From a candidate division WOR-3 bacterium (GTDB lineage: Bacteria > Hydrothermota > Hydrothermia > B15-G9 > WFZT01), in the NCBI GenBank assembly GCA_027053075.1, contig JALUEE010000090.1, positions 10,392 to 74,391 on the forward strand: a DNA stretch of 64,000 bases, read 5' to 3'. Positions within the stretch are counted from its first letter, which is position 1. Every line of letters begins with the position of its first letter. Below the pieces are notes generated by a model that saw nothing but the letters and a program-made list of their open reading frames with translations, was not told where the DNA came from and made no database searches. A program made the position numbers and the translations under genes. Of this stretch, positions 17,692-61,972 are shown piece by piece.

Positions 17692-18421
17692 TTTTCAATT
17701 CCTCCAGAATCTCAGGCAATATTTCTCCTGCCTTGCCCATAAAAGAAAAGTCGGCAATTGCCGTAACAGGTGTTTTTTCAATGTTAACTTCGATTATAAG
17801 AGCTCCCATTTCTTTTGCCTCGAATGGGAGCTGTGCTGCAGGATAGACGACTGCCGACGTGCCTATTACAAAGAAAAATTCGGAATTTCTCGCGATTTCA
17901 AAACTCTTTCTGAGTGCATCGGGTGGTAGCATTTCACCAAACCATACCACGTCAGGCCTGAGAAGTGCACCGCACTCAGGACACCTGGGAAGCTCACCTT
18001 CCCGTATCTCAAAATCAGTGTAAATTTTGCCGCAGCCGGTACATCTGGCACGGAGGAGATTCCCGTGGAGCTCTATAACGTTCTTCGAGCCCGCCTTTTG
18101 ATGGAGATTGTCAACATTCTGAGTGATGGTGTGGAATTCCTCAAAAATGGATTCAAATTCCTTTAAGGTGTAGTGAGCGGGATTTGGTTCAGTGCTTTTG
18201 ACGAGTTTGATACGCCAATTGTACCATTCCCATACCAGTTTGGGGTTTCTCATGAAGGCCTCGGGAGTTGCCAGGTCCTCCGGCCGGTATTTATTCCACA
18301 AACCATCTTTCCCGCGGAAAGTTGGGACGCCGCTCTCACTGGAGACTCCGGCTCCAGTGAGAGCGGCGCCTCTTTTCATTTTACTCAAAATCCTGGCAAG
18401 CTCCCTGATTTTTGGGTTCAT
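17678..18421 (-). CDS. cobB: NAD-dependent protein deacylase (Sir2 family)
   Basis: GAGVSSESGVPTFRG, plus a CxxC...CxxC zinc ribbon. Confidence 0.85.
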   Translation of the reverse strand: MNPKIRELARILSKMKRGAALTGAGVSSESGVPTFRGKDGLWNKYRPEDLATPEAFMRNPKLVWEWYNWRIKLVKSTEPNPAHYTLKEFESIFEEFHTITQNVDNLHQKAGSKNVIELHGNLLRARCTGCGKIYTDFEIREGELPRCPECGALLRPDVVWFGEMLPPDALRKSFEIARNSEFFFVIGTSAVVYPAAQLPFEAKEMGALIIEVNIEKTPVTAIADFSFMGKAGEILPEILEELKNVKD

Positions 18422-18918
18422 TCCCTGCTCCAGTAGACCCTCAAAAGTTTTTGGCTATCAGAAAATGAAAATTCAAGCTCGCCCTGATGGGCCTTATGAA
18501 CCGCCTTGCCAAGCTTTTTGGCAAGGGTTTCAGTAGTGGTCTCGATAACGAGACCATCATCGGTTTCCTTGATACTCATAATTCTTGCAAGGGGATTGCG
18601 TTTCATTTCATATTCGGCCTCATTTTTAATGAGATTCAAAATCTCTTGCTTGTTCTCTTTAACGTAATCACCAACAAGCTCCACAATCCCCAGAGGGTAA
18701 TGATCCTCGATTTTTCTGCATGCCGGGCATTTCTTAAAGTTGACTTTACTTTTGTCTTTCATGAGCTCTTTGTAATAATCCTCATCCCAGAACCACCTTT
18801 TATTGTGGTAAATAAGTTTGCAGGAAGGACAGATTGTCGGGTCTTTGTACTGGGACTTGTCCATGTATGGATCGTGCAACTTCATGTCGTAGAGTTTATC
18901 AATTCTTTTCATCGTCAT
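18418..18918 (-). CDS. hypothetical zinc-ribbon protein (CPSC...CPAC)
   Basis: Two CxxC pairs 27 residues apart. Its stop overlaps the cobB start by ATGA. Confidence 0.5.
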   Translation of the reverse strand: MTMKRIDKLYDMKLHDPYMDKSQYKDPTICPSCKLIYHNKRWFWDEDYYKELMKDKSKVNFKKCPACRKIEDHYPLGIVELVGDYVKENKQEILNLIKNEAEYEMKRNPLARIMSIKETDDGLVIETTTETLAKKLGKAVHKAHQGELEFSFSDSQKLLRVYWSRE

Positions 18919-20458: not shown

Positions 20459-20537
20459 CGGTTAAATGATAAACCAATCCATCCGAACACATTCTGGTTG
20501 AACATTGACAGATTCTTAAAAGATACAAGAAAATTGA

Positions 20538-21215
20538 GTGATGGCAGGAAAACTGTTTGTGGTGGCCACACCTATCGGGAATATTAAAGATATAACACTG
20601 CGGGCACTTGAAACCCTTAAGGAGGTTGACCTTATCCTCTGTGAGGACACGAGAAGAACGAGACCTCTTCTCTCGCATTACGGTATTTCAAATGAGCTTT
20701 TATCTTACAACGAGCACAACGAGCGCGAAAGAATACCATACGTCTTGGAGATGCTCGAACAGGGCCATGATGTAGCACTGGTCTCAGATGCTGGTACTCC
20801 CGGAATTTCTGATCCCGGATACCGCCTCGTAAGAGAGGCAAGATTGAGAGACTTTGAAGTCGTCTCGATTCCTGGTCCCTCTGCAATTATTGCGGCCCTT
20901 TCTATTTCCGGTTTACCCACAGACAGATTCGTTTTTGAAGGCTTCCTGCCACGTAAGAAATCAAGGCGTTTAAAACGCCTGGAATTTTTGAAAAAGGAGG
21001 ATCGAACGATTATAATTTATGAGTCGGTTCACCGCATAGAGCGAACCCTCCATGAGATTTTAGAGATTATGGGTGATAGAGAGGTGGCTCTGTGCAGGGA
21101 ATTGACGAAAGTACATGAAGAAGTTAAATTTGGAATGCTAAGCGAAATAATCAAGAAAGGTTTCACGAAAAAAGGTGAGTTTGTGATAGTTTTAAGAGGC
21201 TATGATGAGTCTTGA
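20538..21215 (+). CDS. rsmI: 16S rRNA (cytidine1402-2'-O)-methyltransferase
   Basis: GKLFVVATPIGNIKDITLRALETLKEVDLILCEDTRRT is the RsmI/tetrapyrrole-methylase signature. Confidence 0.85.
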   Translation: MMAGKLFVVATPIGNIKDITLRALETLKEVDLILCEDTRRTRPLLSHYGISNELLSYNEHNERERIPYVLEMLEQGHDVALVSDAGTPGISDPGYRLVREARLRDFEVVSIPGPSAIIAALSISGLPTDRFVFEGFLPRKKSRRLKRLEFLKKEDRTIIIYESVHRIERTLHEILEIMGDREVALCRELTKVHEEVKFGMLSEIIKKGFTKKGEFVIVLRGYDES

Positions 21216-21786
21216 CGCTCTGAAGAAGAAAGGGAAATCTTCTTTAAGGCCCTTTGTTAATCTCATGATTGCTCTCAAGGTGTCCCCGGACACTTTGAGT
21301 GTGACGGGATTCCTTATAACTCTAATCATCGGTTATTTCTATGCTCGTGGAGAGCTTGTACTGGGTGGAATTTTTATACTCGTGTCCGGATTGTTTGATG
21401 CCATTGATGGAGAGGTGGCAAGGGCAACAGGGAAAAGTTCAAGAAAAGGGGCACTTCTGGACTCAAGCATAGATAGAGTATCTGAATTCTTTATCTTTGG
21501 CGGCCTTTTGTACTATTTTAGGGCTAACACCTATGCGTTTGTCATCCTCTACCTTTCACTTGTTTTTTCTATACTCGTGAGTTACATGAGAGCTCGTGGC
21601 GAAGGACTTGGGTATTCTGCCCGTTCGGGCTTGATGGATCGGTCTGGAAGGATGATATATTTATTCTTTGCGTCACTTCTTGGGGAGAGGACGTTTATCT
21701 CCCTCATGACTGTATTTATGGTTCTGACATTTGCCACTGTGGTGGAAAGGTGGTTGATTTTGAGAAAAATTCTTTCTGAAAAATAA
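21202..21786 (+). CDS. CDP-alcohol phosphatidyltransferase family protein (candidate phosphatidylinositol-phosphate or DIPP synthase)
   Basis: [12 protein letters not shown]...G...D motif and 5-6 TM helices. Overlaps rsmI by 14 nt and lies 11 nt upstream of the inositol-phosphate synthase gene. Confidence 0.75.
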
Positions 21787-21797
21787 GGAGGTTAGAA

Positions 21798-22895
21798 ATG
21801 GGAGAAATCAGAGTTGCGATTGTTGGTGTTGGTAATTGCGCATCAAGTCTGGTGCAGGGCGTTTACTATTATAGAAATGCCCAGCCCGGTGATTTTATTC
21901 CGGGAATTATGCATGTGATTTTCGGTGGGTATCACATCAATGACATTAAATTCTGTTGCGCGTTCGACATCAACAAGACAAAGGTAGGAAAGGACCTCTC
22001 AGAGGCTATTTTTGCTTACCCCAACAACACATACAAGTTTACAGATGTTCCCAAAATGGGAGTGAAAGTTTACCGCGGAATGACCCATGACGGAATAGGC
22101 AAATATCTTGCTGACATTATCGAGAAGGCACCTGGTCCTACAGACGATGTGGCAAAAATCCTCAAAGAAGAAGGTGCTGACGTCGTAGTGAACTTCCTGC
22201 CTGTGGGCTCAGAAGAAGCCACAAAATGGTATGTTGAGCAGGCAATCCAGGCTGGAGCAGCGTTTGTTAATGGAATTCCGGTGTTTATCGCAAGCTCCGA
22301 ATACTGGAGCAAGAGGTTTGAGGAAGCCGGACTTCCTGTGCTCGGAGACGATATTAAGTCTCAGGTCGGTGCGACCATTGTCCACAGGACACTGGTACAG
22401 CTTTTCCTCGACAGAGGAGTAAAGCTTGAGAGAACCTCTCAGCTCAATGTAGGTGGAAACACTGACTTCCTCAACATGCTCGAGAGGGAAAGACTTCACT
22501 CAAAGAAGATTTCCAAGACTCAGGCTGTAACATCACTCCTACCCTACGACATTGGTGAGGAGAATGTGTACATTGGCCCATCAGACTATGTGGCATGGCT
22601 CAAGGACAGAAAGTGGGCATACATGAGACTTGAAGGTAGGACTTTCGGAGACGTGCCTCTGAATATCGAGCTCAAGCTTGAGGTCTGGGATTCGCCCAAC
22701 TCTGCAGGTGTAATGATAGATGCCATCAGAGCTGCAAAGATTGCAAAGGATAATGGACTTAAGGGTGCAATAATCGAGCCTTCAAGCTACTTCTTCAAGT
22801 CGCCACCGAAGCAGTTCCCTGACTACAAGGCACGTGCACTGCTTGAGGACTGGATAAAGAAGCACACGGAGAAGAAGGAAGAAAAGAAGAAGTAA
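21798..22895 (+). CDS. myo-inositol-1-phosphate synthase (archaeal/bacterial type)
   Basis: [23 protein letters not shown]-terminus and Lys-rich C-terminus; 365 aa. AAGGAGG RBS. Confidence 0.85.
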
Positions 22896-22917
22896 TAATT
22901 TGGGAGATCTTTGAACT

Positions 22918-22962
22918 TAAGTGGGGCGGCACGCTTCGCGTGCCGCCCCACTTAATTTTTCT
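22918..22962 (+). terminator. rho-independent terminator
   Basis: AAGTGGGGCGGCACGC-TTC-GCGTGCCGCCCCACTT followed by AATTTTTCTC. Confidence 0.65.
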
Positions 22963-23387
22963 CAAAAAAATTTTAGCCCCTCTCTCACCGGTAGGTGAGG
23001 AGAGGGGGCTAAGTCAAACCACCTCCTGCGTCCTTATTCCCCCTCCATGCAATTTTACAAATGGCAATTTTTCTGCCACAAGATAAAATTTGGGATGGAG
23101 AAATGTATATGCTCCTTCTAATTAAGAGAAGTGTCCTTTCTAAACCCGGGCTGCAGGGCAGATAGGAGCAGAAAGATTTATCATAAATTCTTAAAAAGTT
23201 CTATTTGATGAACGGGCGGCGTGCTTTTGTCTGAAGTCCCATTTTGAGACTTAACCAGGAGGAAAAGTTCATAAAATGCCCAAAATTCCTGCTAATATAT
23301 CGAGTCCCAAAATGGGACACAAAAACGGAACACTCTAACTCATTTTATTTTCTGCGGAAAAACACTCTAAACCACAGGGTGAAAGCT

Positions 23388-24101
23388 CTACAAAATATTT
23401 TTGATCTCGCTGAGTCGGGTAATCACCCAATCTGCTTCCGTATCCCCTTCCCATTCCGGGTTGAAGAGAATGGCCTTCATGCCCACAGATTTTGCTCCCT
23501 TAACATCATACTCTTCGAGGTCGCCCACCATAATCGTTTCCTCGGGATAAGACTCGAGCCTTTCGAGTGCCCTTCTAAAAATCTCAGGATGGGGTTTCCT
23601 TATCCCTTCACCGGCGGACGAAAGGATTTTGTTAAAAAATTTGTTTAATCCATGCTTTTCCATCAATCTTAAGACAAACCTGTGGCAGGTAGAATTTGAT
23701 ATCAGGCCCAGTCTGTGCCCCTTATTCTTCAGGTATGAAAGCACATCCAGCGTGTCTGGAAAGAGTACATATTTCTCAATTTCCGGGGTAAAGAAAGCGT
23801 CAACTGCACGTTTCTTTATGGATTCAGGCACATTTTCAATCTGAAGAATGGATAAAGTTTTATCGAGAACTTCGTCGGCTGTAACCTCCTTTAGGGTCTC
23901 GTCAGCCTTCTTGAACGCTTTTAACCTTTCTTTTGTCCATACCCTGAGAAGATCGTCAAATTCGATGTAAATACCCTCGAGAGAAAAGACCCTATGCATG
24001 AGCTCAACGCCCTTTCGATTTACCTCTTCCACATCACCTGTGAATTTTACAAGGGTATTCCCCAGATCAAAGATTAAGGTCAAAAAGCCCTCCCTCTTCA
24101 A
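23388..24101 (-). CDS. HAD-superfamily hydrolase (phosphatase)
   Basis: LIFDLGNTLV (DxG motif I) ... GLISNS ... MVGDLEEYDVKGA (motif IV). Confidence 0.75.
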   Translation of the reverse strand: MKREGFLTLIFDLGNTLVKFTGDVEEVNRKGVELMHRVFSLEGIYIEFDDLLRVWTKERLKAFKKADETLKEVTADEVLDKTLSILQIENVPESIKKRAVDAFFTPEIEKYVLFPDTLDVLSYLKNKGHRLGLISNSTCHRFVLRLMEKHGLNKFFNKILSSAGEGIRKPHPEIFRRALERLESYPEETIMVGDLEEYDVKGAKSVGMKAILFNPEWEGDTEADWVITRLSEIKNIL

Positions 24102-30803: not shown

Positions 30804-32042
30804 ATGCACAGGGAGACGCGGAAAATCTTTGAGAATTTCTCCTGGATGTTACTCGGTCAGGTGGCCGGTCGGGTATTTGGCTTCTTTGCCATCATCTTTC
30901 TTGCCAGGAGACTCGGTAAGAGTGCCTATGGTATGTGGGCTTTTGCATTCGCACTGCTTTCCTACGGCATGCTCCTAACGGATTTCGGACTCAGCACCTA
31001 CGGGTTGATCGAGGTTTCAAAAGACAGAAAAGCACTGAAAACACTCCTCGGAGATATCCTTTCCATCAGGCTTGTAATAGCATTTTTTCTACTCATCATC
31101 ATTGTTCCTTTCTCGCGGATTGTCCCAAAGCTCAGCTCAATGTCAGGCCTCTTATTCTTAACCTTCCTTAATCTCATCCCCTTTGCCCTCTCCTTAGATT
31201 GGGCGTTCAGAGCGCTGGAAGATATGAAGTTCGCTGCACTCTGGACGTTTATTTTTAATCTTTTATTCTTTTTGCTGATAATTTTTGTGGTTAGAAGTCC
31301 GTCAGATATTCTAAAAGTCCCATCCTCAAGATTCTTTTCACTTCTTATTGCTTCTGGTCTTCTTATTTACTTTCTCTGGAAAAGATACCCTGAGCTCTTT
31401 GCCTTCAATGTAAATTTCAGCAGATGGCCTGCCATTATGAAGGTTTCAGTTGTCCTTACGGCTTCCTTTGTCATGATTAAAATTTACTACAACATTGATG
31501 TACTGATGCTTGGATTTTACAGGACAATGAAGGAGGTGGGAGTTTACAGCGCAATTTACAACTTTGTCCTCGCCCTGTCAGTGGTGAGATTTTCGCTTCT
31601 CTATGCTGTGCAGCCTACACTTTCCCGGATTGAGCAGATACCCTGGAAGGATTATTCGAAAAAATTGTGGAAATTCGAGACAGTCTCCATAGCCATTGGG
31701 GTTCTTTTGTATCTTTTTGTTTTCGTTCTGGCAGGACCTATCATAAAGATTTTTTACGGTGGTAAATACACAAGTCCCGAAACAATAAAACTTTTAAGAA
31801 TTCTCATCAACGCCAACCTTATAATGTTCATAAACCTTGTTTTCCCCTCTCTTTTGATCATTGTGAAGAGGGAAATGCTCTACTTCTGGGTTACAACCGC
31901 TGGAGCGACCACAAACTTTTTATTAAATCTGTATCTGATACCGAGGTTTGGGTACTTTGGGGCTGCATACACGACTGTGCTCTCAGAATTTGTTGTATTT
32001 TTGCTGTCTTTTGTTTTATACTACCGCCTGATTAGACCATGA
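30804..32042 (+). CDS. MOP-superfamily (Wzx-like) polysaccharide/lipid-linked oligosaccharide flippase
   Basis: 412 aa with 12-14 TM helices and a Wzx-like N-terminal basic patch. Confidence 0.65.
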   Translation: MHRETRKIFENFSWMLLGQVAGRVFGFFAIIFLARRLGKSAYGMWAFAFALLSYGMLLTDFGLSTYGLIEVSKDRKALKTLLGDILSIRLVIAFFLLIIIVPFSRIVPKLSSMSGLLFLTFLNLIPFALSLDWAFRALEDMKFAALWTFIFNLLFFLLIIFVVRSPSDILKVPSSRFFSLLIASGLLIYFLWKRYPELFAFNVNFSRWPAIMKVSVVLTASFVMIKIYYNIDVLMLGFYRTMKEVGVYSAIYNFVLALSVVRFSLLYAVQPTLSRIEQIPWKDYSKKLWKFETVSIAIGVLLYLFVFVLAGPIIKIFYGGKYTSPETIKLLRILINANLIMFINLVFPSLLIIVKREMLYFWVTTAGATTNFLLNLYLIPRFGYFGAAYTTVLSEFVVFLLSFVLYYRLIRP

Positions 32043-32758
32043 AAGCATTTATTCTTGCAGCGGGAAAGGGTACACGACTTATGCCATTGACAGCCGAGAT
32101 TCCGAAGGCCCTGCTTGAGTTGAAAGAAGGCCTCACTCCACTGGATTTTCAGCTGAATCTACTCACCAAGTATGGGTTTTCCCCGGCGGATATTTTCATT
32201 ATCGGTGGTTATCGTTTTGAAAAACTCAAGAGATACGGTGAAATTGGAGTCAATCTTGTTTTTAATGAGAAATACGACAGTTTGAACAATATCTACACTT
32301 TTCTGCTTGCTTCAAATTTCACAAACGGTGAAGATTTTTTAATTTTGAATGTTGACACAATTTTTGATGAATCATTGCTCGATGAGCTTATAAAAACACC
32401 AGGAAGTGCAATGGTGGTGGATAACGTCAAGATTCTTGGTGATGAGGAAATGAAGGTCAAGATCGCTGATGGAAGAATTGTGGAGGTCAGTAAATTCATA
32501 CCACCTGAGAATGCCCATGGTGAATACATCGGGATTTCAAAATACTCGCACTCAGAGGCCACAGTGATATTCGACAAAATCAGGGATATGCTTGAAAATG
32601 GCGAGGGGCACAGATGGTATGAGGACGCAATAAATCTTGTTCTCGACAGGGTTGAGATATCACCTGTTTTCACAGAAGGTAAAAAGTGGATTGAAATTGA
32701 TACGCCGCAGGATTTAGAAATAGCGCGGGGGCTTGTTCATGATTTACAGAACGATTAA
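32039..32758 (+). CDS. LicC/IPCT-type alcohol-phosphate cytidylyltransferase (nucleotidyltransferase fold)
   Basis: MKAFILAAGKGTRLMPLT..PKALL, LVFNEKYDSLNNIYTFLL and WIEIDTPQDL are nearly colinear with S. pneumoniae LicC. ATGA overlap with the flippase gene. Confidence 0.8.
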   Translation: MKAFILAAGKGTRLMPLTAEIPKALLELKEGLTPLDFQLNLLTKYGFSPADIFIIGGYRFEKLKRYGEIGVNLVFNEKYDSLNNIYTFLLASNFTNGEDFLILNVDTIFDESLLDELIKTPGSAMVVDNVKILGDEEMKVKIADGRIVEVSKFIPPENAHGEYIGISKYSHSEATVIFDKIRDMLENGEGHRWYEDAINLVLDRVEISPVFTEGKKWIEIDTPQDLEIARGLVHDLQND

Positions 32759-33776
32759 CATTCCGGTTTTTCTGGAAATCGGTGAGGGTATCCTTGAAGA
32801 CTTTAATGGAATTTTAAAAAAACATAATCTCTCCTTTTCTCGTCCATTGATTCTCACAGGTGAGAAAAGCTCAAAAGTTCTTGCAGGATTTGATTTTTTT
32901 AATAGATTTGAAAAGCTATTCATCCGGGAAAACGACCTTGAAACTTTGCTCGTGATAAAAAGTGACATTTACGGTAAAGGTTACGATCTGTTACTCGCGT
33001 GCGGAGGTGGAAGGGTAATTGATAGTGGAAAGTTTCTCTCCCTCGAGACTTCCCTGCCACTTGTTGCTATTCCAACAATCTTATCGAGCGACAGCGTGTC
33101 ATCGCCAATAAGTATTCTTAAAGATAACCATGGAACGAGGAGCATGGGGACAGTTATGCCAATGGGGGTTTTAATTGATGTACAGATAATCAGGACTTCG
33201 CCCGAGATTTACCTAAAAGCGGGATTGGGTGACCTTATGTCCAATCTGTCATCTGCTTATGACTGGGAGCTTGCTTACAAACGAGGTTTTGAAAGAATCG
33301 ATAACTTCTCGAGGATGCTCGCCCTTTTGCCCGCTCAGCGGATTCTTCTCAAAACCGATGGGTACAAGGGGTTAAAAGACGAGGAGCTACTTGCTGATCT
33401 TGCCGAAGGACTGGTGCTCAGCGGAATTTCAATGGCTATAGCCGGGAGTTCAAGGCCTGCCAGTGGAAGTGAGCACAATATCAGCCATAGCCTTGACAGG
33501 ATACTCGGGCAGCAAAAGAAACTTCACGGGCTGCAGGTAGGACTTGCTACCGTTCTTACCCTAATTCTTCAGGGGAATAGAGAGCAGGCCGATGTGCTTT
33601 CGCAATTGTATAAGAAGACTGGCTTCCCTTTGAATTTAAAGGAGCTTGATATCTCCTGTGAAGATTTCGAGAAGGCCCTTGAAATAGCACCAGGCCTGAG
33701 AGACAGATATACTGTCCTTAATGAAATCCCTATTGAGGAGCTGAAAGAAGTCGCAAGAGCCAGACTCTGCAAGTAA
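32733..33776 (+). CDS. egsA: sn-glycerol-1-phosphate dehydrogenase (EgsA/AraM family)
   Basis: GGGRVIDSGK, PTILSSDSVSSP, GLGDLMSNLSSAYDWELAYK and SSRPASGSEHNISHSLD match the archaeal G1PDH motif set; 347 aa. Overlaps the cytidylyltransferase gene by 26 nt. Confidence 0.8.
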   Translation: MFMIYRTINIPVFLEIGEGILEDFNGILKKHNLSFSRPLILTGEKSSKVLAGFDFFNRFEKLFIRENDLETLLVIKSDIYGKGYDLLLACGGGRVIDSGKFLSLETSLPLVAIPTILSSDSVSSPISILKDNHGTRSMGTVMPMGVLIDVQIIRTSPEIYLKAGLGDLMSNLSSAYDWELAYKRGFERIDNFSRMLALLPAQRILLKTDGYKGLKDEELLADLAEGLVLSGISMAIAGSSRPASGSEHNISHSLDRILGQQKKLHGLQVGLATVLTLILQGNREQADVLSQLYKKTGFPLNLKELDISCEDFEKALEIAPGLRDRYTVLNEIPIEELKEVARARLCK

Positions 33777-33780
33777 CCAC

Positions 33781-34698
33781 ATGTTTGATCCCATTTATCT
33801 TGAAGCCTACGAGACGGGCAGGCTAAAGGAAAAAGTGGAAGAGGCCCTTGAGTCTCTGAGTTCATGCGTAGCCTGTCCGATTGGATGTCGGGTGAATAGG
33901 CTCGAAGATGAGATTGGTGATTGCGGGGTTGGGAGATTTGCAATTCTTTCTTCCTATGGACCTCATTTCGGGGAAGAATCTGTGCTTGTCGGTTACCACG
34001 GCTCGGGTACGGTGTTCTTTGGAGGATGCAACCTCAGATGTGTTTACTGCCAGAACTATGATATAAGTCAGCTCAGATGGGGTAGAGCAGTGGACGCTAA
34101 AACCCTTGCAGGTGTGTTCCTCGAAATTCAGGATATGGGTTGTCATAACCTCAATCTCGTGAGTCCCACCCACGTGGTTCCCCAGATCCTCGAAGCACTT
34201 TTGATCGCTGTGGAGAAAGGTTTCAGGCTACCTCTTGTTTATAATACAGGTGGATATGACCACATAAGGACGTTGAAATTGCTCGACGGAATTGTTGATA
34301 TTTACATGCCCGATACGAAATATGGCGATTCTAAAAAGGGTTTAAAGTACTCAGGGGTTAAAAACTACTTTGAGATCAATAAGAGAAACCTGAGAGAAAT
34401 GCATCGGCAGGTAGGAGATTTGAGGATTGAAGAAGGTCTTGCCGTCAGAGGACTCCTAATTCGGCATCTTGTTTTACCGAACAATATTTCTGACTCTGAG
34501 AAGGTCATCGATTTTATAGCCGATGAACTCTCAAAAGATAGCTGGCTGAATCTCATGGATCAGTATTATCCTGCCTACAGAGCGATGGAGTACCCTGAAC
34601 TGTCCCGAAGGATTACACGGAGAGAATACTTCAGGCTTGTGGATTATGCATTAAACAAGGGAATTCACAGAGGAATTCCGTTTGATCATGCCCGATAA
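33781..34698 (+). CDS. radical SAM protein, PflX/COG1313 (AmmeMemoRadiSam-type) family
   Basis: CNLRCVYCQNYDIS cluster plus an N-terminal extra Cys motif SCVACPIGC. Confidence 0.7.
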   Translation: MFDPIYLEAYETGRLKEKVEEALESLSSCVACPIGCRVNRLEDEIGDCGVGRFAILSSYGPHFGEESVLVGYHGSGTVFFGGCNLRCVYCQNYDISQLRWGRAVDAKTLAGVFLEIQDMGCHNLNLVSPTHVVPQILEALLIAVEKGFRLPLVYNTGGYDHIRTLKLLDGIVDIYMPDTKYGDSKKGLKYSGVKNYFEINKRNLREMHRQVGDLRIEEGLAVRGLLIRHLVLPNNISDSEKVIDFIADELSKDSWLNLMDQYYPAYRAMEYPELSRRITRREYFRLVDYALNKGIHRGIPFDHAR

Positions 34699-45397: not shown

Positions 45398-47068
45398 ATG
45401 GATCGTCCGTGGCTGAAATTCTACGATGAAGATGTACCACGGAGTATTGATTATCCCAGAATGCCCATCTATGGCATTCTCGATGGTTCAGCAGAAAAGT
45501 TCCCCTCCAAAACGGCTTCCATATTCTACGGTAAAAAGCTCACTTACAAAGAGCTAAAAGAATTATCCGATAGATTTGCAAATTCCCTCAAAAAACTTGT
45601 CATTGGAAAAGGAGACAAAGTAGCACTTCTCCTGCCAAACTTCCCGGGTTACGTTATTGCCTACTTTGGTGCTTTAAAATCCGGCGCTGTCGTTGTCCCA
45701 CTGAATCCCCTTTACACAGAGAGTGAGCTTGAGTTTCACTTTAACGATTCCAGTGCGGAGACCGTTGTTACAATCCCTATGTTTGTTGAAAAGGCAGCCG
45801 CACTAACGAAAAAGACACCACTCAAGCGTGTCATCGTTTCCTACATTGCTGACTTTTTACCATTTCCCCTCAGTTTTGTTCAGAAACTCAGAGAAAATCC
45901 ATATGTGAAGCGGGCAAAGAAGACCATTTCAGGTGAGCTTCTCAATATGAAAGACATGATTTCGAGCCCTGCCACTGGTTTTAAACCTGCACAGGTGAAT
46001 CCCGATGAGCTTGGAATTCTCATTTATTCGGGAGGTACAACAGGTGTGGCAAAGGGGATAATGCTCTCTCACTACGCAGTTGTGGCAAATGCCCACATGA
46101 TCAAAGCCTGGGGTCACCTTGATGAAAACGAGAGGATGCTGGCAGTGCTGCCGTTTTTTCACGGCTACGGCATGAATGTAACCATGAACGCAGCACTACT
46201 CTCGGGCATGTCCATTGTAATGCTGCCCAGATTCAGCGCGCGCGAGATGGCAAAGACCATTGATAAATACAAACCCACGCAGACCGCAGTTGTTCCCACC
46301 ATCCTCGTTGCACTTTCCGCTGTCAAAAACGTGGAAAAGTATGATTTTTCAAGCCTCAAGGCCATTTGGGTTGGAGCTGCCCCGCTGACTGCTGCCATCA
46401 AAGAGAATTTTGAGAAGAAAACCGGTGGACGTGCCATAGAGGGTTATGGCCTCACCGAGGCAGTCACTGCAATAATGGCCAATCCCATGAAGGGAAAACA
46501 CAAGGTAGGAAGTATCGGACTCCCATTCCCTGATGTTGATGCGAAAATCGTTTCACTTGATGGAACAAAAGACCTTCCATCCGGTGAGGTGGGAGAGATT
46601 GCACTAAAAACCCCGACCGTGATGCTCGGTTACTACAATAGACCCGAGGAAACTGCAAAAACCATTAAAGACGGCTGGCTTCTCACTGGGGATATTGGTT
46701 TTATGGACGAAGAGGGTTATTTTTATATAACCGACAGGAAAAAGGACCTCATCATTGTTGGTGGATTTAACGTTTTCCCGAGGGAAATTGACGAGTTGAT
46801 TTATAAGCATCCGAAGGTGAAAGAGGGAATAACTGTTGGCGTGCCTGATGAATTTAAGGGTGAGAAAATAAAAGTCTTTATCGTGCTCAAAGAGGGTGTT
46901 ACAGCCACGGCAGAAGAGTTTATTGAATATTTCAAAAAGCACCTTGCCCCCTACAAAGTGCCAAGTGAGGTAGAATTCAGGAAAGAGCTTCCAAAGAGTG
47001 CAATTGGAAAGATTCTTCGAAGGGTACTAAGAGAGGAGGAAATCAAAAAGCGTGGTAAAAATACCTAA
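45398..47068 (+). CDS. AMP-forming acyl-CoA ligase (FadD/long-chain-type)
   Basis: YSGGTTGVAKG AMP-binding P-loop, GYGLTE, TGDIGFMDEEGYFYITDRKKDLI and PKSAIGKILRR. Confidence 0.85.
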   Translation: MDRPWLKFYDEDVPRSIDYPRMPIYGILDGSAEKFPSKTASIFYGKKLTYKELKELSDRFANSLKKLVIGKGDKVALLLPNFPGYVIAYFGALKSGAVVVPLNPLYTESELEFHFNDSSAETVVTIPMFVEKAAALTKKTPLKRVIVSYIADFLPFPLSFVQKLRENPYVKRAKKTISGELLNMKDMISSPATGFKPAQVNPDELGILIYSGGTTGVAKGIMLSHYAVVANAHMIKAWGHLDENERMLAVLPFFHGYGMNVTMNAALLSGMSIVMLPRFSAREMAKTIDKYKPTQTAVVPTILVALSAVKNVEKYDFSSLKAIWVGAAPLTAAIKENFEKKTGGRAIEGYGLTEAVTAIMANPMKGKHKVGSIGLPFPDVDAKIVSLDGTKDLPSGEVGEIALKTPTVMLGYYNRPEETAKTIKDGWLLTGDIGFMDEEGYFYITDRKKDLIIVGGFNVFPREIDELIYKHPKVKEGITVGVPDEFKGEKIKVFIVLKEGVTATAEEFIEYFKKHLAPYKVPSEVEFRKELPKSAIGKILRRVLREEEIKKRGKNT

Positions 47069-48173
47069 GAGGCACGAGGTTTGCAGGAAATTTAAGGAGC
47101 AGGGGGGAAAGGTTGCGGCAGTATTGCCCATCCATTATCCGAGAGCACTTTTGAGGGCTTTTGATATACTACCTGTGGAAGTGTGGGGACCTCCTCAAGT
47201 GGACGTAAGTTATGGAGGTGCACACCTGCAGCCCTATGTTTGCTCGATAGTTCACAATGCCCTTTCGTTTCTCAAAACCGGTGGGCTGGATGAAACCGAC
47301 ATTATCATTGTTCCGCACACGTGTGACTCGCTTCAGGGATTTGGAAGCATTCTGCTTGATTTTGTTAAGCCCAGACAGCCGGTTTTTCCAATTTATTTGC
47401 CACGCGGAAAAAGGTCGGAGGATGTTGAATTTCTGGTGAATGAGTTTAAATCTCTATACAGGGGGCTCGAAAAAATTACCGGCAAAAGCCCGATGGATGA
47501 TGAGATGCTTAAGAGAATCGAAATTGAAGAGGAGGCCGATGCAAAGCTAAAAGAGCTTTATGAGATCAGGGGTGAATTTTCCTTTGAGTCAGGAAAGACC
47601 AAAAGCAGGTCAAGCAAGGGAGAAGCCCTTTCAACCTACGATTTTTACAGGGTTGTGCGGGCAAGAGAATTTTTACCAGCCGAGAAATTTATTGAGATTG
47701 CTGACGAGGTGATTTCGGAATATTCATTTGTAAGAGATGGTGTGCCTGTGATACTTTCGGGGATAGTTCCAGAGCCCATGGAGGTTTTGAATGCCATTGA
47801 AGAAGCCGGGGGATTTGTCGTTGTAGATGACCTTGCCTGCTGTGGCAGACGTCTTTATGGACGTGGAAAATCGAGTGAGCCATTGAAAAGGATGGCCGAA
47901 AGGATTATTTTCGGGCCACCTGATGTGACACGAGGGAATTTGATTGAGGAGAGGTTTGAACATTTGAAGTATCTTGCTGAGGTCACAGGGGCACGCGGTA
48001 TCATTTTCTATACTGTAAAGTTCTGCGAGCCCGAGTTATTTGATTTACCTGACCTGAAGAATATGCTGAAGAGTGCGGGGGTACCTTCGGTGCAGGTTGA
48101 GATCGATATCGGTGACCCATTACCTCATCAGACTATCACGAGATTGACTGCGTTTTTAGAGGTGCTGGCATGA
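47052..48173 (+). CDS. 2-hydroxyacyl-CoA dehydratase / benzoyl-CoA reductase family subunit (HgdB/BcrB-like), GTG start
   Basis: [26 protein letters not shown] and [11 protein letters not shown] patterns of the HgdAB/BcrBC fold. Overlaps the ligase by 17 nt. Confidence 0.7.
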
Positions 48174-49492
48174 GTTTGAAAGACCATCTCAAATATTACT
48201 GGAATGTGAAGCTTGTTGGGAGTGCCTATCTCAGGTGGCAGAGGTGGCAGGCAGAGCGGAAGCCTCGAATTCCGCGAAATTGGAGAACGAATATAATCGC
48301 ACCACCGCTGAAGATCAGTGCCCGCACAAAAGAGCTGATCTCAAGGCATTATCTTGAGGGAAGGTATGCGAATGGGCATAAGCCTGTTGCGTGGGTTACA
48401 TCTGGTGGGCCGGTCGAAATCCTTCAGGCTCTTGGCTTTTATGTTTTGTATCCTGAAAATCACGGCGCGCTCTGTGGAGCGCGCCGTTACGCTCTTGAAC
48501 TCTCAGAAGAGGCCGAAAACTACGGTTTCTCCCAGGATATTTGCTCATACGCGAGGACGGATATAGGGAGCATGCTCTCGGGGAAGACACCGATTGGAAG
48601 ACTTCCAAAGCCTGATCTTCTGCTTGCATGCACAAATATTTGTCAGACAGTGCTTTTCTGGTATCGAGTGCTTGCAAAGCATTTTAACGTTCCGATTATC
48701 CTGATTGACACACCATTCGTTTACAAAGATGCACCGGAGCACGCTATTGAATACGTGAAAAAGCAGCTCGAGGCTTCGATTCCGGTGGCCCAGAGGGTTG
48801 CAAAGAAAAAGCTTAGCTTTAAAAAATTAAAGGAAGTTGTGAGGCTCAGCCGTGAGGCTTCTGAGCTGTGGCTCGAGATTATGTATAGGGGAAAGGCAAA
48901 GCCTGCCCCGATCTCGGTTTTTGACCAGTTCATACACATGGCTCCAATTGTGGAGATGCGGGGTAAACCCGAAACGGTGGATTTTTACGCAGCAATGCTC
49001 AAAGAGGTTGATGAAAGAATCAAAAAGGGTATCGGAGCAGTGAAGAATGAGAGGAAAAGGCTGCTCTGGGATAATTTGCCCATCTGGTATAAACTGAGAT
49101 TCCTTGCGGAGTATCTTGGTGAGCATGGGATTTCGGTGGTTGCTTCTACTTATACCATGGCATGGGGTGAGCTTGCCCCATTGATTGACCCGGAAAGACC
49201 CATTGAATCAATGGCAAAGACTTATATTTACCCAATTTTGAATCGTGGAACAGGCTACAAGTTGCAAAAGATGAGGGACATGGTTGAGGAATTTGACCTT
49301 GATGGTGCAATTTTGCATTCTGACCGCTCGTGTAAGCCTTATTCTATCGGACAGGTGGATCAGAGGAACAGATTGATCAGTGAATACGGGATACCTGCTC
49401 TTATTTTAGAGGCTGATCATAATGATCCCCGGGCATTTGCAGATGAGCAGGTAAAAGCAAGACTTGATTCATTTATAGAGATGCTGGAATGA
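48170..49492 (+). CDS. 2-hydroxyacyl-CoA dehydratase family subunit (HgdA/BcrC-like)
   Basis: [32 protein letters not shown] and [10 protein letters not shown] Cys ligand context. ATGA overlap upstream. Confidence 0.7.
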
Positions 49493-50265
49493 TTAAAGCA
49501 ATAGGAATTGATGTAGGTTCAACAACGGCAAAGATTGTAGGAGTTAACGAGGGTGGGGACTTTGTGTGGAGCTATATTGAACCTGCCGACCCAAGGGTAG
49601 AGGACCAGGTGGAGAGGTTTCTCGAGAAGGTCAGGGAAGTGGCAGGTTCCATTGAAGGAATTCCCATAGTGGCAACAGGTTATGGAAGAAACCTTGTCCA
49701 TCAGGCAACGAAGAAGGTGACAGAAATCACCTGCCATGCGCGCGGGGTTTTCAAGCAGCTTGGCCATGGTGGAACGCTTGTGGATATTGGTGGACAGGAC
49801 AGTAAGGTGATTGTAATAGGGCCGCATGGAGAGGTGGTGGATTTCACCATGAACGACAAGTGCGCCGCAGGGACAGGAAGATTTCTTGAAAATACTGCCG
49901 GAAGGCTCAGGGTGAAGCTCGAAGAGATGGGGAGTGTGGCCCTCTCTGCTCCTGAAGAGGTGAAAATTTCCAGTACGTGTACGGTTTTTGCTGAATCTGA
50001 GATTATTTCAATGATTGCTCATGGTGTGAGGGTTGAGCCCATTTTAAAGGGGCTTCACAGGTCCCTTGTGAAGCGAATTGTTGCCATGATTAGAAGTGTG
50101 GGGCTGGTGCCTCCATTGATGCTGTCCGGGGGAGTAGTAAAAAACCCGGCAATAAGGAAGATGATTGAGGAAGAAACGGGAGAGAAGGTAATTTTACCCG
50201 AGCACCCGCAGTTCATGGGCGCCTACGGCGCCGCCTTGATAGGATTGAAGTTGGGGAAAGGGTAG
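49489..50265 (+). CDS. CoA-substrate-specific enzyme activase (BadF/BadG/BcrA/BcrD/HgdC ATPase)
   Basis: [14 protein letters not shown]-terminal ASKHA motif and [12 protein letters not shown]; ATGA overlap. Confidence 0.85.
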
Positions 50266-50364
50266 GCAAATTAGGAGAATTATTAAATTCAAAGAATTTT
50301 GTTTACTTTCCTGAGAGTTATTTGGTTATAGCAATCCCCATTGGAAATTATAAAATATAGCCCC

Positions 50365-50665
50365 TCACCTTGCCTCTCCCCGCAAAGAATTTATGCGGGG
50401 AGAGGAAGTTTTTGGGTGTAGGAGTAATTGATTGAACATGCAAACGGAGCGCATAGGCTAAATGAATTTCCACCTGTACATCCCTGCAATCACAATATAA
50501 ATTACCAGAAAACCAAGTAGAACCTTTCTAACAAGCGAAACTTGTTTCCCCCAACAACACAAAATATTTCCCTCCCCTGCGCTTTGCGCTGGGGAGGGTG
50601 AGGGAGGGGTATTCCGCTTGAAATCTTGAAATTACATATCTAAACCATCACCCTTACCCCCTTCT
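50365..50665. repeat. intergenic mosaic repeat copy E
   Basis: CCTCTCCCCGC-AAAGAATTTAT-GCGGGGAGAGG palindrome with embedded GAATTTATGCGGGGAGAGGAAGT block, CCCTCCCCTGCGC-TTTG-CGCTGGGGAGGG palindrome, then GGTATTCCGCTTGAAATCTTGAAATTACATATCTAAACCATCACCC block. Confidence 0.7.
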
Positions 50666-50906
50666 GCTAAGCTGAAGAGGTAGATAGATTTTTCCTCAAA
50701 ACTTTTGAAATGTAGCCTCTTTCCTCAACCCTCTTAAACAAATTTTTGTGGGAAAAGTTTTTTATAAAATCGTCAACCTGTTTGAGCCCCCTCGTTTAGA
50801 CGCTTCCTCGTAATTATGCGCCCCAATTTACACTGTAGCAAATTCAACAATGTGCACCAATAGAAACCCGGTTGTTTGTGCCATCGGTGGAAATTATCAT
50901 ATCAAT

Positions 50907-52673
50907 ATGAAGAAAGAGTTGAGGCCTGAGGAACTCAAAGATAGCCTGATTTCAGGTGCGGCCAATGTTATTAAAAATCGGGAAAAGCTCAACAAGATCA
51001 ACGTCTTCCCGGTGCCGGATGGGGATACCGGTTCAAACCTTGCGGAGACCTTCAAAAGTATTCTCCAAACCCTAAAAAGTCGCGATTTTGACAGTGCCCA
51101 CGCTCTTCTCAGTGCTGTATCACGAAACATGCTTAGAAATGCCAGAGGAAATTCAGGGGTCATATTTTCCCAATTTTTCTACAGTTTCAGCAAGTCTTTG
51201 AAGGGCAAGAAAAACGTTTCAATTCATGATTTTGCGGAAAGTATGAAGCAATCTATCAAAAAGACCTATGAAGCACTTGAAAAGCCTGTCGAAGGCACTG
51301 TTCTCACGGTCATCAGAGAGGTATCCGAAGAGGCTGAGAAAATTTCCTTGAAGGTAAATGATTTTCGTGAATTTATAGAGCATCTTCAGGAAACCGCTAA
51401 AAAATCGGTTGAAAAAACGCGGGAGACATTGCCACAGTTGAAAAAGGCACGGGTGGTGGATGCCGGTGGACTCGGATTCCTTTATTTTTTACAGGGAATT
51501 TCTGCTTATTTTAAAGGAGATAGGATTAAATTTGATGAGGATTTTTCGGCATCCCGCGTTGACGAATACAAGGCTGAATTTAGCGAGAAGTATAGATATT
51601 GTACAGAAGTTTTACTTGAGGATAGCAGATTAAATTCTGTTGAAATAAAAAGGAAGCTCTCTTCTCTTGGAGATTCCCTTATTGTTGTGGGTGACCCGGC
51701 TCTATTTCACATACATATTCACACAGACGAGCCTGAAAAAGTTTTTAAAACACTTTCCGAAGTTGGAAAAATCAGGATGAAAAAGGCCGACGACATGCAT
51801 GCGCAGGTGCGCATCAGGCAGGATTATGCAATTCTTGTGGATTCAGGAATGGACCTCCCTCCTTCGTATTATCAAAAATATGGGTTCAAGGTAATTCCCT
51901 TTCAGGTTTTCGTCGGGAATAAATCGTATAAAGAAGGAGTGGATATATCTCGTGAAGAGATTATAAAAATCCTCACTTCAAACAGATGGAAAGAATTGAA
52001 AACCTCGCAGCCTGCCTTCTCCGATTATTTAGAAGCTTATAAAGAGCTCTTAAACCGGGCTCGTCACGTATATGCCATTCATCTATCTTCAAATTTCAGT
52101 GGCACATATTCGAGTTCGGTTACAGCCGCGGAAAGGATTGACCCTGAGCGTATCACGGTTTTTGACACAAAACTGTTCAGTATTGCTGCTGGTCTGCTGG
52201 CTTTAAGGATCAGAGATATGATTGAGAAAAAGATGCCGCGAGAGGAAATTCTAAAGAAAATTGAAGAAATTCGGCTCCAATCCTTTGCTGTAATAGTTCT
52301 CGATACCATGAAAAATTTGGTTCATGGAGGTAGGGCTGGGAAGCTTAAAGGAGGGTTTGTAGATTTCCTTGGTATCAAATTGATTATCACCATTGATGAG
52401 GATGGATACCTCAAAAAACTCACCCAGGCCTTTGGAAGAAAAGCCGCCCTCAAGAAAGTTTTATCTCTTTTGCGAGAGAAACTGGACCCGGGACGCACTT
52501 ATGACTTTGGAATAGCTCACGTAAATACACCTCAAAAAGTGGAGTTTATCAGGGAATTCATCAGGTCAAATTTTAAGTACAGGGACATTATCGTGAACTA
52601 CACCACCCCTGCAATTGCTGTCTATGGTGGTCCTGGAGCTTATGGGGTATTTGCGGTACCTGTAGAAGAATAG
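50907..52673 (+). CDS. DAK2-domain fusion protein (YloV/FakA-like fatty-acid kinase subunit)
   Basis: VFPVPDGDTGSNL Dak2 motif, a middle domain, and a C-terminal EDD/DegV-like domain (ILVDSGMDLP..., SSNFSGTY). Start taken at the second Met (MKKELRPEEL). Confidence 0.75.
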   Translation: MKKELRPEELKDSLISGAANVIKNREKLNKINVFPVPDGDTGSNLAETFKSILQTLKSRDFDSAHALLSAVSRNMLRNARGNSGVIFSQFFYSFSKSLKGKKNVSIHDFAESMKQSIKKTYEALEKPVEGTVLTVIREVSEEAEKISLKVNDFREFIEHLQETAKKSVEKTRETLPQLKKARVVDAGGLGFLYFLQGISAYFKGDRIKFDEDFSASRVDEYKAEFSEKYRYCTEVLLEDSRLNSVEIKRKLSSLGDSLIVVGDPALFHIHIHTDEPEKVFKTLSEVGKIRMKKADDMHAQVRIRQDYAILVDSGMDLPPSYYQKYGFKVIPFQVFVGNKSYKEGVDISREEIIKILTSNRWKELKTSQPAFSDYLEAYKELLNRARHVYAIHLSSNFSGTYSSSVTAAERIDPERITVFDTKLFSIAAGLLALRIRDMIEKKMPREEILKKIEEIRLQSFAVIVLDTMKNLVHGGRAGKLKGGFVDFLGIKLIITIDEDGYLKKLTQAFGRKAALKKVLSLLREKLDPGRTYDFGIAHVNTPQKVEFIREFIRSNFKYRDIIVNYTTPAIAVYGGPGAYGVFAVPVEE

Positions 52674-60799: not shown

Positions 60800-61972
60800 T
60801 TAGGTCAATTCAGACATTATAGATATGTATTTACTGGCTACATCTTCTGGAGCGAATTCCCTTGCGTGAGCGAAGGCGTTTCTGGACATTTTCCAGAGTT
60901 CACTCTCAGAGAGGCCCAGAATGGCCTTTTTTAAACCATCTTGGCTGTCGATATCAAAAACAATACCTGTTTCTTTATGCTTTACGAGCTCTGGAAGGCC
61001 GCCTCTATTCGAGGCTATAACAGGTATTCCGTATGCATTTGCCTCGTGAACAACGGTTGGAGAGGAGTCGTTACACAGGGACGGTACCACGAGCACGTCA
61101 ATCTGGGAGTAAAAACTTGTGGCATCAACCCATCCGAGGAATTTAATATTTCCCCTTTTGACAAGTGAGTTAAGAAATTTCCCGTATTCTGACGTATAAG
61201 GACTTCCGGCGATGAGCAACGGGGCGTCAATTTCGTTGAAGGTTTTAATTGCTACTTCAATACCTTTAGATGGGTGGAGTTTTCCGATAAATCCAAAGGT
61301 GGGATTCTTGAAGTCTTTCTCGATGTGCTCGGGGAAGGGTACTATAACCGGGTTGTAAATGACAGAGAATGGAGTGTCTGTGAAAAATCCGAGATTCTGG
61401 TGTCTTGTGATGATATATCTACTTGTACCCACTACAAAATCGATATAATTGATAAACTTTTTCTTCAATGCAGCGTATATACTGCATGTCGTGCAAATCT
61501 TTTCACAGTTCTTCATGTTTTTAAACATGGTGGCTTTAACACACATGAAACTGTGATCATGGAGGGTATGGACAACCTTGAAACTTCTAAACTCCTTCAG
61601 CACTCCAAAAGACAGTTCGCTTAAGTTGTGGGTGTGGATGATATCGGGTTTTTCAGACGATAATATATCTTTTACCTTCCCCCGGACAAGGGGGTTGTTT
61701 ACGTTGATAAGATGCCAAAGAGGGCGAATAACGGGAGATTTGGACGAGGAATCTTTTCCCCGGTAAATATTTCTGTTGTGAAGTCTGTAAACCCTTATCC
61801 CTTCTATTTCCTCAATTGAGTCTCTGGCTCCGGAAGTAATGACAAAAACCTGATGTCCTAGTTTACGGTAAGTCTCGGTAAGCTTTTTCACTACCATCTC
61901 CGCGCCACCAATTGATTCCGGATAGTAGTATGAATTTACAACCGCAATCTTAAATTTTTTTGAAGAATTCAT
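60800..61972 (-). CDS. GT4-family glycosyltransferase
   Basis: KIAVVNSYYYPESIGGAEMVV N-terminus and the EX7E-type C-terminal region (GLPELV...ETG). Confidence 0.8.
   Translation of the reverse strand: MNSSKKFKIAVVNSYYYPESIGGAEMVVKKLTETYRKLGHQVFVITSGARDSIEEIEGIRVYRLHNRNIYRGKDSSSKSPVIRPLWHLINVNNPLVRGKVKDILSSEKPDIIHTHNLSELSFGVLKEFRSFKVVHTLHDHSFMCVKATMFKNMKNCEKICTTCSIYAALKKKFINYIDFVVGTSRYIITRHQNLGFFTDTPFSVIYNPVIVPFPEHIEKDFKNPTFGFIGKLHPSKGIEVAIKTFNEIDAPLLIAGSPYTSEYGKFLNSLVKRGNIKFLGWVDATSFYSQIDVLVVPSLCNDSSPTVVHEANAYGIPVIASNRGGLPELVKHKETGIVFDIDSQDGLKKAILGLSESELWKMSRNAFAHAREFAPEDVASKYISIMSELT

Follow-up and report, generated by a model that had tools for sequence, protein, structure and literature searches.

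What does a CDP-alcohol phosphotransferase make when its gene lies between a 16S rRNA methyltransferase gene and a gene for myo-inositol-1-phosphate synthase (MIPS)? The question is raised by a three-gene locus in a 64,000-nucleotide stretch of DNA from a candidate division WOR-3 bacterium, which we refer to as a whole as the window. Inositol phospholipids are not common among bacteria, and most studies of them concern Actinobacteria and Bacteroidetes; the two-step prokaryotic route to them has been described in mycobacteria, in Bacteroides, and in archaea, the last with CDP-archaeol as the donor. Our analysis suggests that this locus probably makes an inositol phospholipid by way of phosphatidylinositol phosphate (PIP), with CDP-diacylglycerol as the predicted donor. 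Judged by its sequence and modeled fold, the transferase is a member of the family of PIP synthases (PIPS) and archaetidylinositol-phosphate synthases (AIPS), with predicted catalytic activity, and its clade is a distinct subclade of that family, intermediate in sequence between the archaeal and actinobacterial models. The route from MIPS through PIPS or AIPS is itself already known, and the locus opens no new mechanism; what is new here is the occurrence of the genes in WOR-3, Hydrothermota, and Cloacimonadota, their conserved place within a housekeeping operon headed by rsmI, and the intermediate sequence position of the transferase.

The operon and its transferase

The locus and the signals around it are as follows.

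20505-20534, + strand: sigma-70-like promoter match TTGACA-18-GAAAAT (consensus scan, 10/12; a consensus match only)
20538-21215, + strand: rsmI, 16S rRNA (cytidine1402-2'-O)-methyltransferase, 225 aa, first gene of the operon (TIGR00096, PF00590)
20988-21016, + strand: candidate internal promoter TTGAAA-17-TATAAT, inside rsmI (consensus scan, 11/12)
21202-21786, + strand: class I CDP-alcohol phosphotransferase, PIP-synthase/archaetidylinositol-phosphate-synthase family, 194 aa, containing [12 protein letters not shown]
21798-22895, + strand: myo-inositol-1-phosphate (inositol-3-phosphate) synthase (MIPS), bacterial Ino1 type, 365 aa
22917-22965, + strand: intrinsic terminator 3' of the MIPS gene, an 18-bp G+C-rich hairpin (22917-22955) followed by a T-run (terminator scan and inverted repeat)
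23388-24101, - strand: HAD hydrolase, 237 aa (PF00702)

An earlier note on this DNA had reported the four genes and had described a 194-aa transferase overlapping rsmI, with MIPS 11 nt later; the list of open reading frames (ORFs) bears out their coordinates and strands as well as that spacing. The end of rsmI and the start of the transferase gene share 14 nt, and an AAGAGG ribosome-binding site lies immediately 5' of the transferase gene. The MIPS gene, which begins 11 nt past the transferase stop, is preceded by an AAGGAGG site. The rsmI start codon is GTG (an ATG is also present at 20541), and the promoter-like match ends 4 nt upstream of it, while the candidate internal promoter lies approximately 190 nt upstream of the transferase. 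We infer that rsmI, the transferase gene, and the MIPS gene form a single co-transcribed operon on the + strand. The spacer of approximately 490 nt between the convergent MIPS and HAD genes (22896-23387) holds no ORF, and an Rfam search of it at a permissive threshold returned only sub-threshold chance matches on the terminator hairpin, which is the only part of the spacer kept in three WOR-3 relatives (L004, L022, and L023). A second strong hairpin is present at about 22975-23010, and long gaps 3' of MIPS also occur in L003 and L022.

The assignment of the transferase was consistent across sequence models, solved structures, and predicted fold. The protein matched PF01066 with 54.1 bits (cutoff, 22; E value, 3e-14), and the best NCBIfam model was that of AIPS (NF040950; 152.5 bits, 1.2e-44, full length), followed by PIPS (NF045883; 121.1 bits) and the Bacteroides BT_1523-type PIPS (NF052561; 100.1 bits). 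Far lower scores were obtained with the models for IPCT/DIPPS (NF041135; 55.8 bits, cutoff 580), PssA (TIGR00473; 35.7 bits, cutoff 107), and PgsA (TIGR00560; 24.3 bits, cutoff 109.1). The same order of models was found in all bacterial relatives tested and in one archaeal homologue from Thermoproteota. The two best scores fall under the equivalog cutoffs of 180 bits for NF040950 and 170 bits for NF045883; the Thermoproteota homologue, at 145 bits, is also short of the AIPS cutoff, and a Desulfurococcales homologue passes it with 200.5 bits. Given that the cutoffs are missed, by the Thermoproteota homologue too, we regard the transferase as a member of the PIPS/AIPS family in a separate, uncharacterised subclade rather than as an equivalog of either curated enzyme. 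These scores under the curated cutoffs also account for public naming, in which relatives in WOR-3, Hydrothermota, and Cloacimonadota appear only as "CDP-alcohol phosphatidyltransferase family protein" (NCBI) or, in many cases and wrongly, as PgsA (JGI).

A sequence search of the PDB gave the PIPS of Renibacterium (5d92; 3e-20) and Mycobacterium (6h53; 4e-16) as the best matches, with AF2299 (5e-9), the A. fulgidus IPCT-DIPPS (3e-8; 4MND, 37 bits), and PssA (5e-5) lower. An AlphaFold (AF2) model built with 21 homologues (pLDDT, 90.5; pTM, 0.83) has seven helices, one juxtamembrane and six transmembrane. The top 14 Foldseek matches of this model are all PIPS chains (TM-scores, 0.76 to 0.88; E values, approximately 1e-8); AF2299 and the A. 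fulgidus DIPPS come after them (5e-7 to 5e-6; DIPPS TM-score, 0.80), and PgsA and PssA reach TM-scores of only about 0.54 with E values of 4e-3 or worse. The class I signature D1xxD2G1xxAR...G2xxxD3xxxD4 is complete (D66, D69, G70, A73, R74, G83, D87, and D91), and its eight residues are invariant or near-invariant across 189 aligned relatives. In the M. tuberculosis PIPS, mutagenesis has shown that S132, K135, R155, and R195 bind inositol phosphate (Clarke et al., PMC4634129). The equivalents in our transferase are S127, R130, R150, and R183, which are near-invariant in the same relatives; R130 is a conservative Lys-to-Arg change relative to K135, and Arg is the majority state. The rankings by hidden Markov model (HMM), PDB sequence, and fold, together with the pocket residues, thus agree on the PIPS/AIPS type, in keeping with the PIP-synthase reading favored in the earlier note, and the transferase does not group with PgsA or PssA.

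The flanking enzymes of the operon are readily assigned, and the family matches of all four proteins, the HAD hydrolase included, far exceed what chance would give. RsmI scored 257.9 bits on TIGR00096 (cutoff, 167.9) and 5.8e-37 on PF00590. MIPS matched PF01658 with 126 bits (cutoff, 27; 8.5e-37) and TIGR03450 with 539 bits (4e-162, below the 638-bit cutoff), and it is 65.8% identical to M. tuberculosis Ino1 (1GR0) over 351 residues in an ungapped alignment of 501 bits. An intact synthase would need its NAD-binding and catalytic Lys residues, a point raised by the earlier note. The N-terminal NAD-binding motif GVGNCAS is present at residues 9-15, and D185, K272, D298, and K334 align with D197, K284, D310, and K346 of the M. 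tuberculosis enzyme, its active-site residues; a literature search for Ino1 mutagenesis residues found nothing.

Relatives of the operon and known counterparts

The rsmI-transferase-MIPS triad is conserved well beyond this genome. A contig of a candidate division WOR-3 metagenome-assembled genome (MAG; L001) carries the same region with 97-100% protein identity, and three further MAGs, WOR-3 or WOR-3-like, have the triad with transferases 80-82% identical to ours. The triad is also found in Hydrothermota (transferase, 47% identical) and Cloacimonadota (39%), and in further bacteria with the LPS-pathway genes LpxK and LptF/G at the locus, where the order is rsmI-transferase-MIPS-tmk-S41 peptidase-dnaE. 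Cloacimonadota share the MIPS-tmk-S41 peptidase portion of this arrangement, so that the triad stands in a housekeeping setting in both groups. The rsmI gene adjoins the transferase gene in every bacterial relative of the subclade, with overlap or abutment as the rule. The sequences on either side of the triad are entirely different, even among WOR-3 relatives that are 81-84% identical. None of approximately 14 bacterial loci has a cytidylyltransferase gene beside the transferase-MIPS pair, and the archaeal loci have no linkage to rsmI or MIPS. After WOR-3, Hydrothermota, and Cloacimonadota, a genome scan matched only archaea.

When WOR-3, Hydrothermota, and the LpxK/LptF/G-bearing bacterial relatives (L005, L016, and L018) are compared, their MIPS proteins share 85-89% identity, against only 47-65% for the RsmI and transferase encoded beside them. 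Such unusual conservation would mean either that MIPS is very strongly constrained or that its gene has been exchanged laterally.

Among the 150 library representatives closest to the transferase, no protein matches an IPCT fusion in length. The longest four comprise one fusion to a GT4 glycosyltransferase, one fusion to a dTMP kinase (Tmk), and two proteins without a second recognised domain; the GT4 glycosyltransferase::transferase fusion (646 aa) and the transferase::dTMP-kinase fusion (471 aa) are P0147 and P0086, respectively. Distant relatives also lie in MIPS...GT4-transferase clusters, as adjacent genes in L020:3688-6639 and with four small ORFs between them in L021:2340-6606. We take these clusters to resemble the mycobacterial pgsA1-pimA and phosphatidylinositol-mannoside genes. 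The fusions and clusters suggest glycosylated inositol lipids in other uncultured bacteria.

The earlier note had proposed a phylogeny of the transferase against the neighbouring families. A neighbor-joining (NJ) tree of 189 sequences (the 150 library representatives, hits of the first search, translations from the loci, and the Mycobacterium and Renibacterium PIPS), rooted at its midpoint, splits a 14-tip archaeal group from the rest and places the clade of our transferase on the bacterial side that contains the actinobacterial PIPS. The deep splits between archaeal AIPS, actinobacterial PIPS, and this clade have negligible bootstrap values of 1-3%, and we therefore make no claim about an archaeal versus a bacterial origin. 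Pairwise, the transferase is 33-37% identical to the closer archaeal AIPS-like proteins (Thermoproteota and Nitrososphaerota) and 26-34% identical to actinobacterial PIPS. A second, profile-based database search, whose profile included the M. tuberculosis PIPS and whose results were dominated by mycobacterial PIPS, returned no labelled DIPPS or BEPIS.

Compared with known systems, the transferase most resembles the actinobacterial PIPS (M. tuberculosis PgsA1/Rv2612c; Renibacterium salmoninarum PIPS, 5D91/5D92; and 6H53) in fold, in its six transmembrane helices and juxtamembrane helix, in its length of about 200 aa, in the eight-residue CDP-alcohol phosphotransferase signature and the inositol-phosphate pocket (S, K/R, R, R); these enzymes are its best matches in the PDB by both sequence and fold. 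It differs from them in its low identity, in its score under the NF045883 cutoff, in the Arg at the K135 equivalent, in a genomic context of rsmI/MIPS instead of pgsA1-acyltransferase-pimA, and in its uncultured and probably thermophilic host. With archaeal AIPS it shares the best-scoring model, identities of 33-37%, and the same pocket residues, whereas its score under the 180-bit cutoff, its bacterial host with fatty-acyl lipid genes, and the rsmI/MIPS linkage set it apart, as does its presumed use of CDP-diacylglycerol in place of CDP-archaeol. Morii et al. are said to have characterised AIPS in Methanothermobacter in 2009.

In B. thetaiotaomicron, of the FCB lineage, the two-step route via PIP is encoded by a cluster of BT_1526 (MIPS), BT_1523 (PIPS), BT_1525 (a PgpA-like PIP phosphatase), and BT_1522 (PMC9246714). 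The clustering of MIPS with a PIPS-type transferase and the 100 bits on NF052561 recall that system, but the WOR-3 locus has no genes for a PgpA-like phosphatase or an inositol-phosphoceramide synthase, its MIPS is of the actinobacterial Ino1 type, and its cluster is merged into an rsmI housekeeping operon. The IPCT/DIPPS of hyperthermophiles (A. fulgidus AF0263, 4MND) belongs to the same superfamily, also takes inositol 1-phosphate as the acceptor, comes from a thermophilic setting, and superimposes well (TM-score, 0.80); the differences are the 37 bits in the PDB search, the 55.8 bits on NF041135, and the lack of a fused or adjacent IPCT at the WOR-3 locus.

Product, donor, and alternative readings

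In the pathway that we propose, rsmI, the transferase gene, and the MIPS gene would be co-transcribed and translationally coupled, and MIPS would convert glucose 6-phosphate to L-myo-inositol 1-phosphate. The six-helix membrane transferase would then pass the phosphatidyl group of CDP-diacylglycerol to the inositol phosphate, giving phosphatidylinositol phosphate and CMP. A phosphatase encoded elsewhere would yield phosphatidylinositol, and further glycosylation may follow. Lnt, a FakA-DegV fatty-acid kinase, and an acyl-CoA ligase are encoded in the window, which indicates ordinary fatty-acyl lipids. We favor CDP-diacylglycerol as donor and PIP as product because no cytidylyltransferase is adjacent or fused, because GT4 clusters and acyl-lipid genes are present, and because the LicC/IPCT-like cytidylyltransferase of the window is found with genes that point to a surface polymer. 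The earlier note had reached the PIPS reading from the lack of a fused IPCT. There is indeed no fused or adjacent IPCT, but the argument is weaker than it was put, given that stand-alone IPCT genes exist and that an IPCT/LicC-like gene lies 10 kb away.

That gene belongs to a second operon, and a likely consumer of its product lies further downstream.

30804-34698, + strand: operon of a Wzx-like flippase, a LicC/IPCT-like cytidylyltransferase (32039-32758), a glycerol-1-phosphate dehydrogenase (G1PDH) homologue (32733-33776), and a radical SAM protein
60800-63170, - strand: TagF-type CDP-glycerol:poly(glycerophosphate) glycerophosphotransferase beside a GT4 glycosyltransferase (PF04464, 236 bits)

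The cytidylyltransferase matched the IPCT portion of NF041135 with 58.6 bits, and its PDB matches were, in order, LicC, 4JD0 (5e-10), and the A. fulgidus IPCT 2XME; 4JD0 is presumably the stand-alone IPCT of T. maritima. The G1PDH homologue scored 226 bits on NF002022 (cutoff, 413) and 1e-43 against the M. jannaschii G1PDH (4RGQ). The trio of flippase, cytidylyltransferase, and G1PDH homologue is also present, translationally coupled, in another WOR-3 genome (L024), and a metagenome scan for relatives of the G1PDH homologue found nothing. The coupling of a G1PDH to a cytidylyltransferase suggests that CDP-glycerol is made from sn-glycerol-1-phosphate, and we know of no description of such a route through a coupled bacterial G1PDH and cytidylyltransferase. 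The TagF-type enzyme is the likely consumer of this CDP-glycerol, in a lineage that is probably diderm, and the coupling to flippase and G1PDH together with TagF points to a role of the cytidylyltransferase in a glycerol-phosphate surface polymer. Elsewhere, homologues of the cytidylyltransferase adjoin CDP-alcohol transferases in Archaeoglobus (L026:6354-7735) and Odinarchaeum (L025:7001-8596). With 125 bits, the 177-aa Archaeoglobus transferase is AIPS-like, and the residues of the inositol-phosphate pocket are conserved in it; as a speculation, it is a candidate for the unidentified glycero-phospho-inositol-phosphate synthase.

Several points weigh against a lipid product made from CDP-diacylglycerol. 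The transferase is under both equivalog cutoffs, the deep splits of the tree carry negligible support, and a sequence does not reveal the donor substrate. The host looks thermophilic, with an IVYWREL-based estimate of about 75°C, which is a setting where soluble inositol phosphodiesters occur, and the IPCT/LicC-like cytidylyltransferase (32039-32758) is 10 kb away. Our comparison with DIPPS was confined to NF041135 and 4MND. Finally, neither the window nor the related loci yielded a PIP phosphatase.

We considered that the transferase could instead make a soluble thermoprotective phosphodiester, joining inositol 1-phosphate either to CDP-inositol, to give di-myo-inositol phosphate phosphate (DIPP) and from it di-myo-inositol phosphate, or to CDP-glycerol, to give glycero-phospho-inositol, with the CDP-alcohol supplied by the 32039-32758 enzyme. 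Such enzymes would need the same inositol-phosphate pocket, the host and most of its relatives look thermophilic, and the IPCT-like matches of the cytidylyltransferase, its translational coupling to the G1PDH homologue, and the archaeal neighborhoods in which its homologues adjoin transferases (the one in Archaeoglobus with the same pocket) all fit this idea. We nevertheless consider it unlikely, given that the DIPPS model and structure rank far under PIPS and AIPS, that no cytidylyltransferase is adjacent in the approximately 14 bacterial loci or fused in the four longest of the 150 representatives, and that fusion to a transferase is likewise missing from the 120 best homologues of the cytidylyltransferase itself. 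In WOR-3 this enzyme is kept with a flippase and a G1PDH homologue, with a TagF-like user of CDP-glycerol in the window, all of which suits a surface polymer, and the inositol operon itself sits among housekeeping genes. Somewhat less probable still is an archaeal-type AIPS working in a bacterium on an ether-linked or glycerol-1-phosphate-based CDP-lipid, or on both kinds of donor, in a mixed membrane. The best score on the archaeal model, the higher identity to archaeal homologues, the restriction of further genome-scan matches to archaea, and the G1PDH homologue in the same window are in keeping with this reading, and Cloacimonetes of the FCB group carry GGGPS and DGGGPS (PMC7852524). The model ranking is soft, however, since a genuine Thermoproteota homologue also misses the AIPS cutoff, and the midpoint-rooted tree puts the clade with actinobacterial PIPS and outside the archaeal group, although with negligible support. 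Furthermore, Pfam scans of 33 window ORFs and reading of the other translations found no GGGPS or DGGGPS (the only UbiA-family protein is MenA-like), Lnt and the fatty-acid kinase indicate acyl lipids, and the G1PDH homologue is coupled to the cytidylyltransferase and flippase rather than to lipid genes. It is a long shot that the transferase uses glycerol-1-phosphate-based or ether CDP-lipids together with the host's own G1PDH homologue (32733-33776) to give archaeal-style inositol lipids in a mixed membrane, or that, together with the LicC/IPCT-like enzyme, it represents the unidentified glycero-phospho-inositol synthase.

A further route, of the Kennedy or BEPIS type, would transfer inositol from cytidylyltransferase-made CDP-inositol to diacyl- or dialkyl-glycerol. 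Such a route has been described for Rhodothermus marinus and proposed for an NTP-transferase/transferase/HAD cluster of B. vulgatus, and the pathway exists in FCB-group bacteria (PMC4587543, PMC9246714); the B. vulgatus-type cluster too has a HAD hydrolase, and our window holds MIPS, a transferase, a nearby HAD gene, and a distant NTP-transferase. We give this route only a very slight chance: the operon-like MIPS-IPCT-transferase arrangement is absent here and in all relatives, the BT_1523 PIPS model scores 100 bits, the HAD protein is neither syntenic nor catalytically canonical, and the two phosphate-binding arginines are kept, which would be unexpected with a lipid-alcohol acceptor. That the enzyme is an ordinary PgsA or PssA with coincidental adjacency to MIPS is effectively refuted. 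The JGI names of homologues do read [quoted passage not shown], but the pgsA and pssA models and structures match poorly, and the linkage to MIPS is kept across phyla.

The earlier note had also offered the convergent HAD hydrolase (23388-24101) as a candidate for the dephosphorylating step, and our results do not bear this out. The gene is close to the operon, its product belongs to HAD subfamily IA (PF00702, 4.2e-25) with the nucleophile Asp, motif III Lys, and motif IV acidic residues kept, and no PIP phosphatase has been identified in bacteria other than Bacteroides (PMC4634129, PMC9246714). However, it lies on the opposite strand, past a strong terminator and the spacer of approximately 490 nt, and it overlaps, at its start, the 3' end of the M42 peptidase gene upstream of it, so it closes a long - strand operon of its own. 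The other members of that operon are an aldolase (FBA), chorismate mutase, prephenate dehydratase (PheA), prephenate dehydrogenase (PDH), and the M42 aminopeptidase; M42 was assigned by HMM, and the other names were read from translations. No homologue of the HAD protein is present in any of 20 related loci, and the flanks of the triad are not conserved even among close WOR-3 relatives. The protein is soluble, with no hydrophobic segment (maximum KD19, 1.01), and the nearest proteins of known structure are ordinary soluble members of HAD-IA. In place of DxDxT, its motif I has FDLGNT (FDLDDT in the aligned 3QNM), such that the general acid/base at Asp+2 is replaced by Gly. The only identified bacterial PIP phosphatase, BT_1525, is PgpA-like and not a HAD protein (PMC9246714). 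A role of this protein as the PIP (or DIPP) phosphatase is accordingly quite improbable, and, as an observation in its own right, a HAD-IA protein with FDLGNT may not be a conventional phosphatase. The scans of the 33 ORFs and the other translations contained no PgpA, PAP2, or IMPase-type phosphatase, and the absence of a candidate matches the situation in mycobacteria, where the PIP phosphatase is likewise unidentified (PMC4634129).

Host, significance, and other features of the window

The host is probably thermophilic. Over 61 window ORFs, IVYWREL is 0.438 and the (E+K)/(Q+H) ratio is 3.9, at a G+C content of 44%, which correspond to an optimum of roughly 75°C by a composition-based growth-temperature formula. 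Most relatives also look thermophile-like by composition, in small samples.

The locus predicts inositol phospholipids in WOR-3, Hydrothermota, and Cloacimonadota, and a literature search on WOR-3 or Cloacimonadota and inositol found nothing relevant. The position of the clade between the curated models for archaeal AIPS and bacterial PIPS would make it a useful case for tracing the evolution of donor-lipid specificity across the lipid divide. In hydrothermal metagenomes, its sequences could also serve to flag inositol lipids.

Two other features of the window were recorded. On the - strand, 18418-18918 encodes a 166-aa protein with two CxxC pairs that matches the NMD3 family (PF04981, 38.5 bits, model positions 128-219), a family that is normally eukaryotic or archaeal; it had no PDB sequence match and is also present in L001. 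On the + strand, the block at 45398-52673 encodes an acyl-CoA ligase, two subunits of an HGD-D family 2-hydroxyacyl-CoA dehydratase with an apparent activator, and the FakA(Dak2)-DegV fusion.

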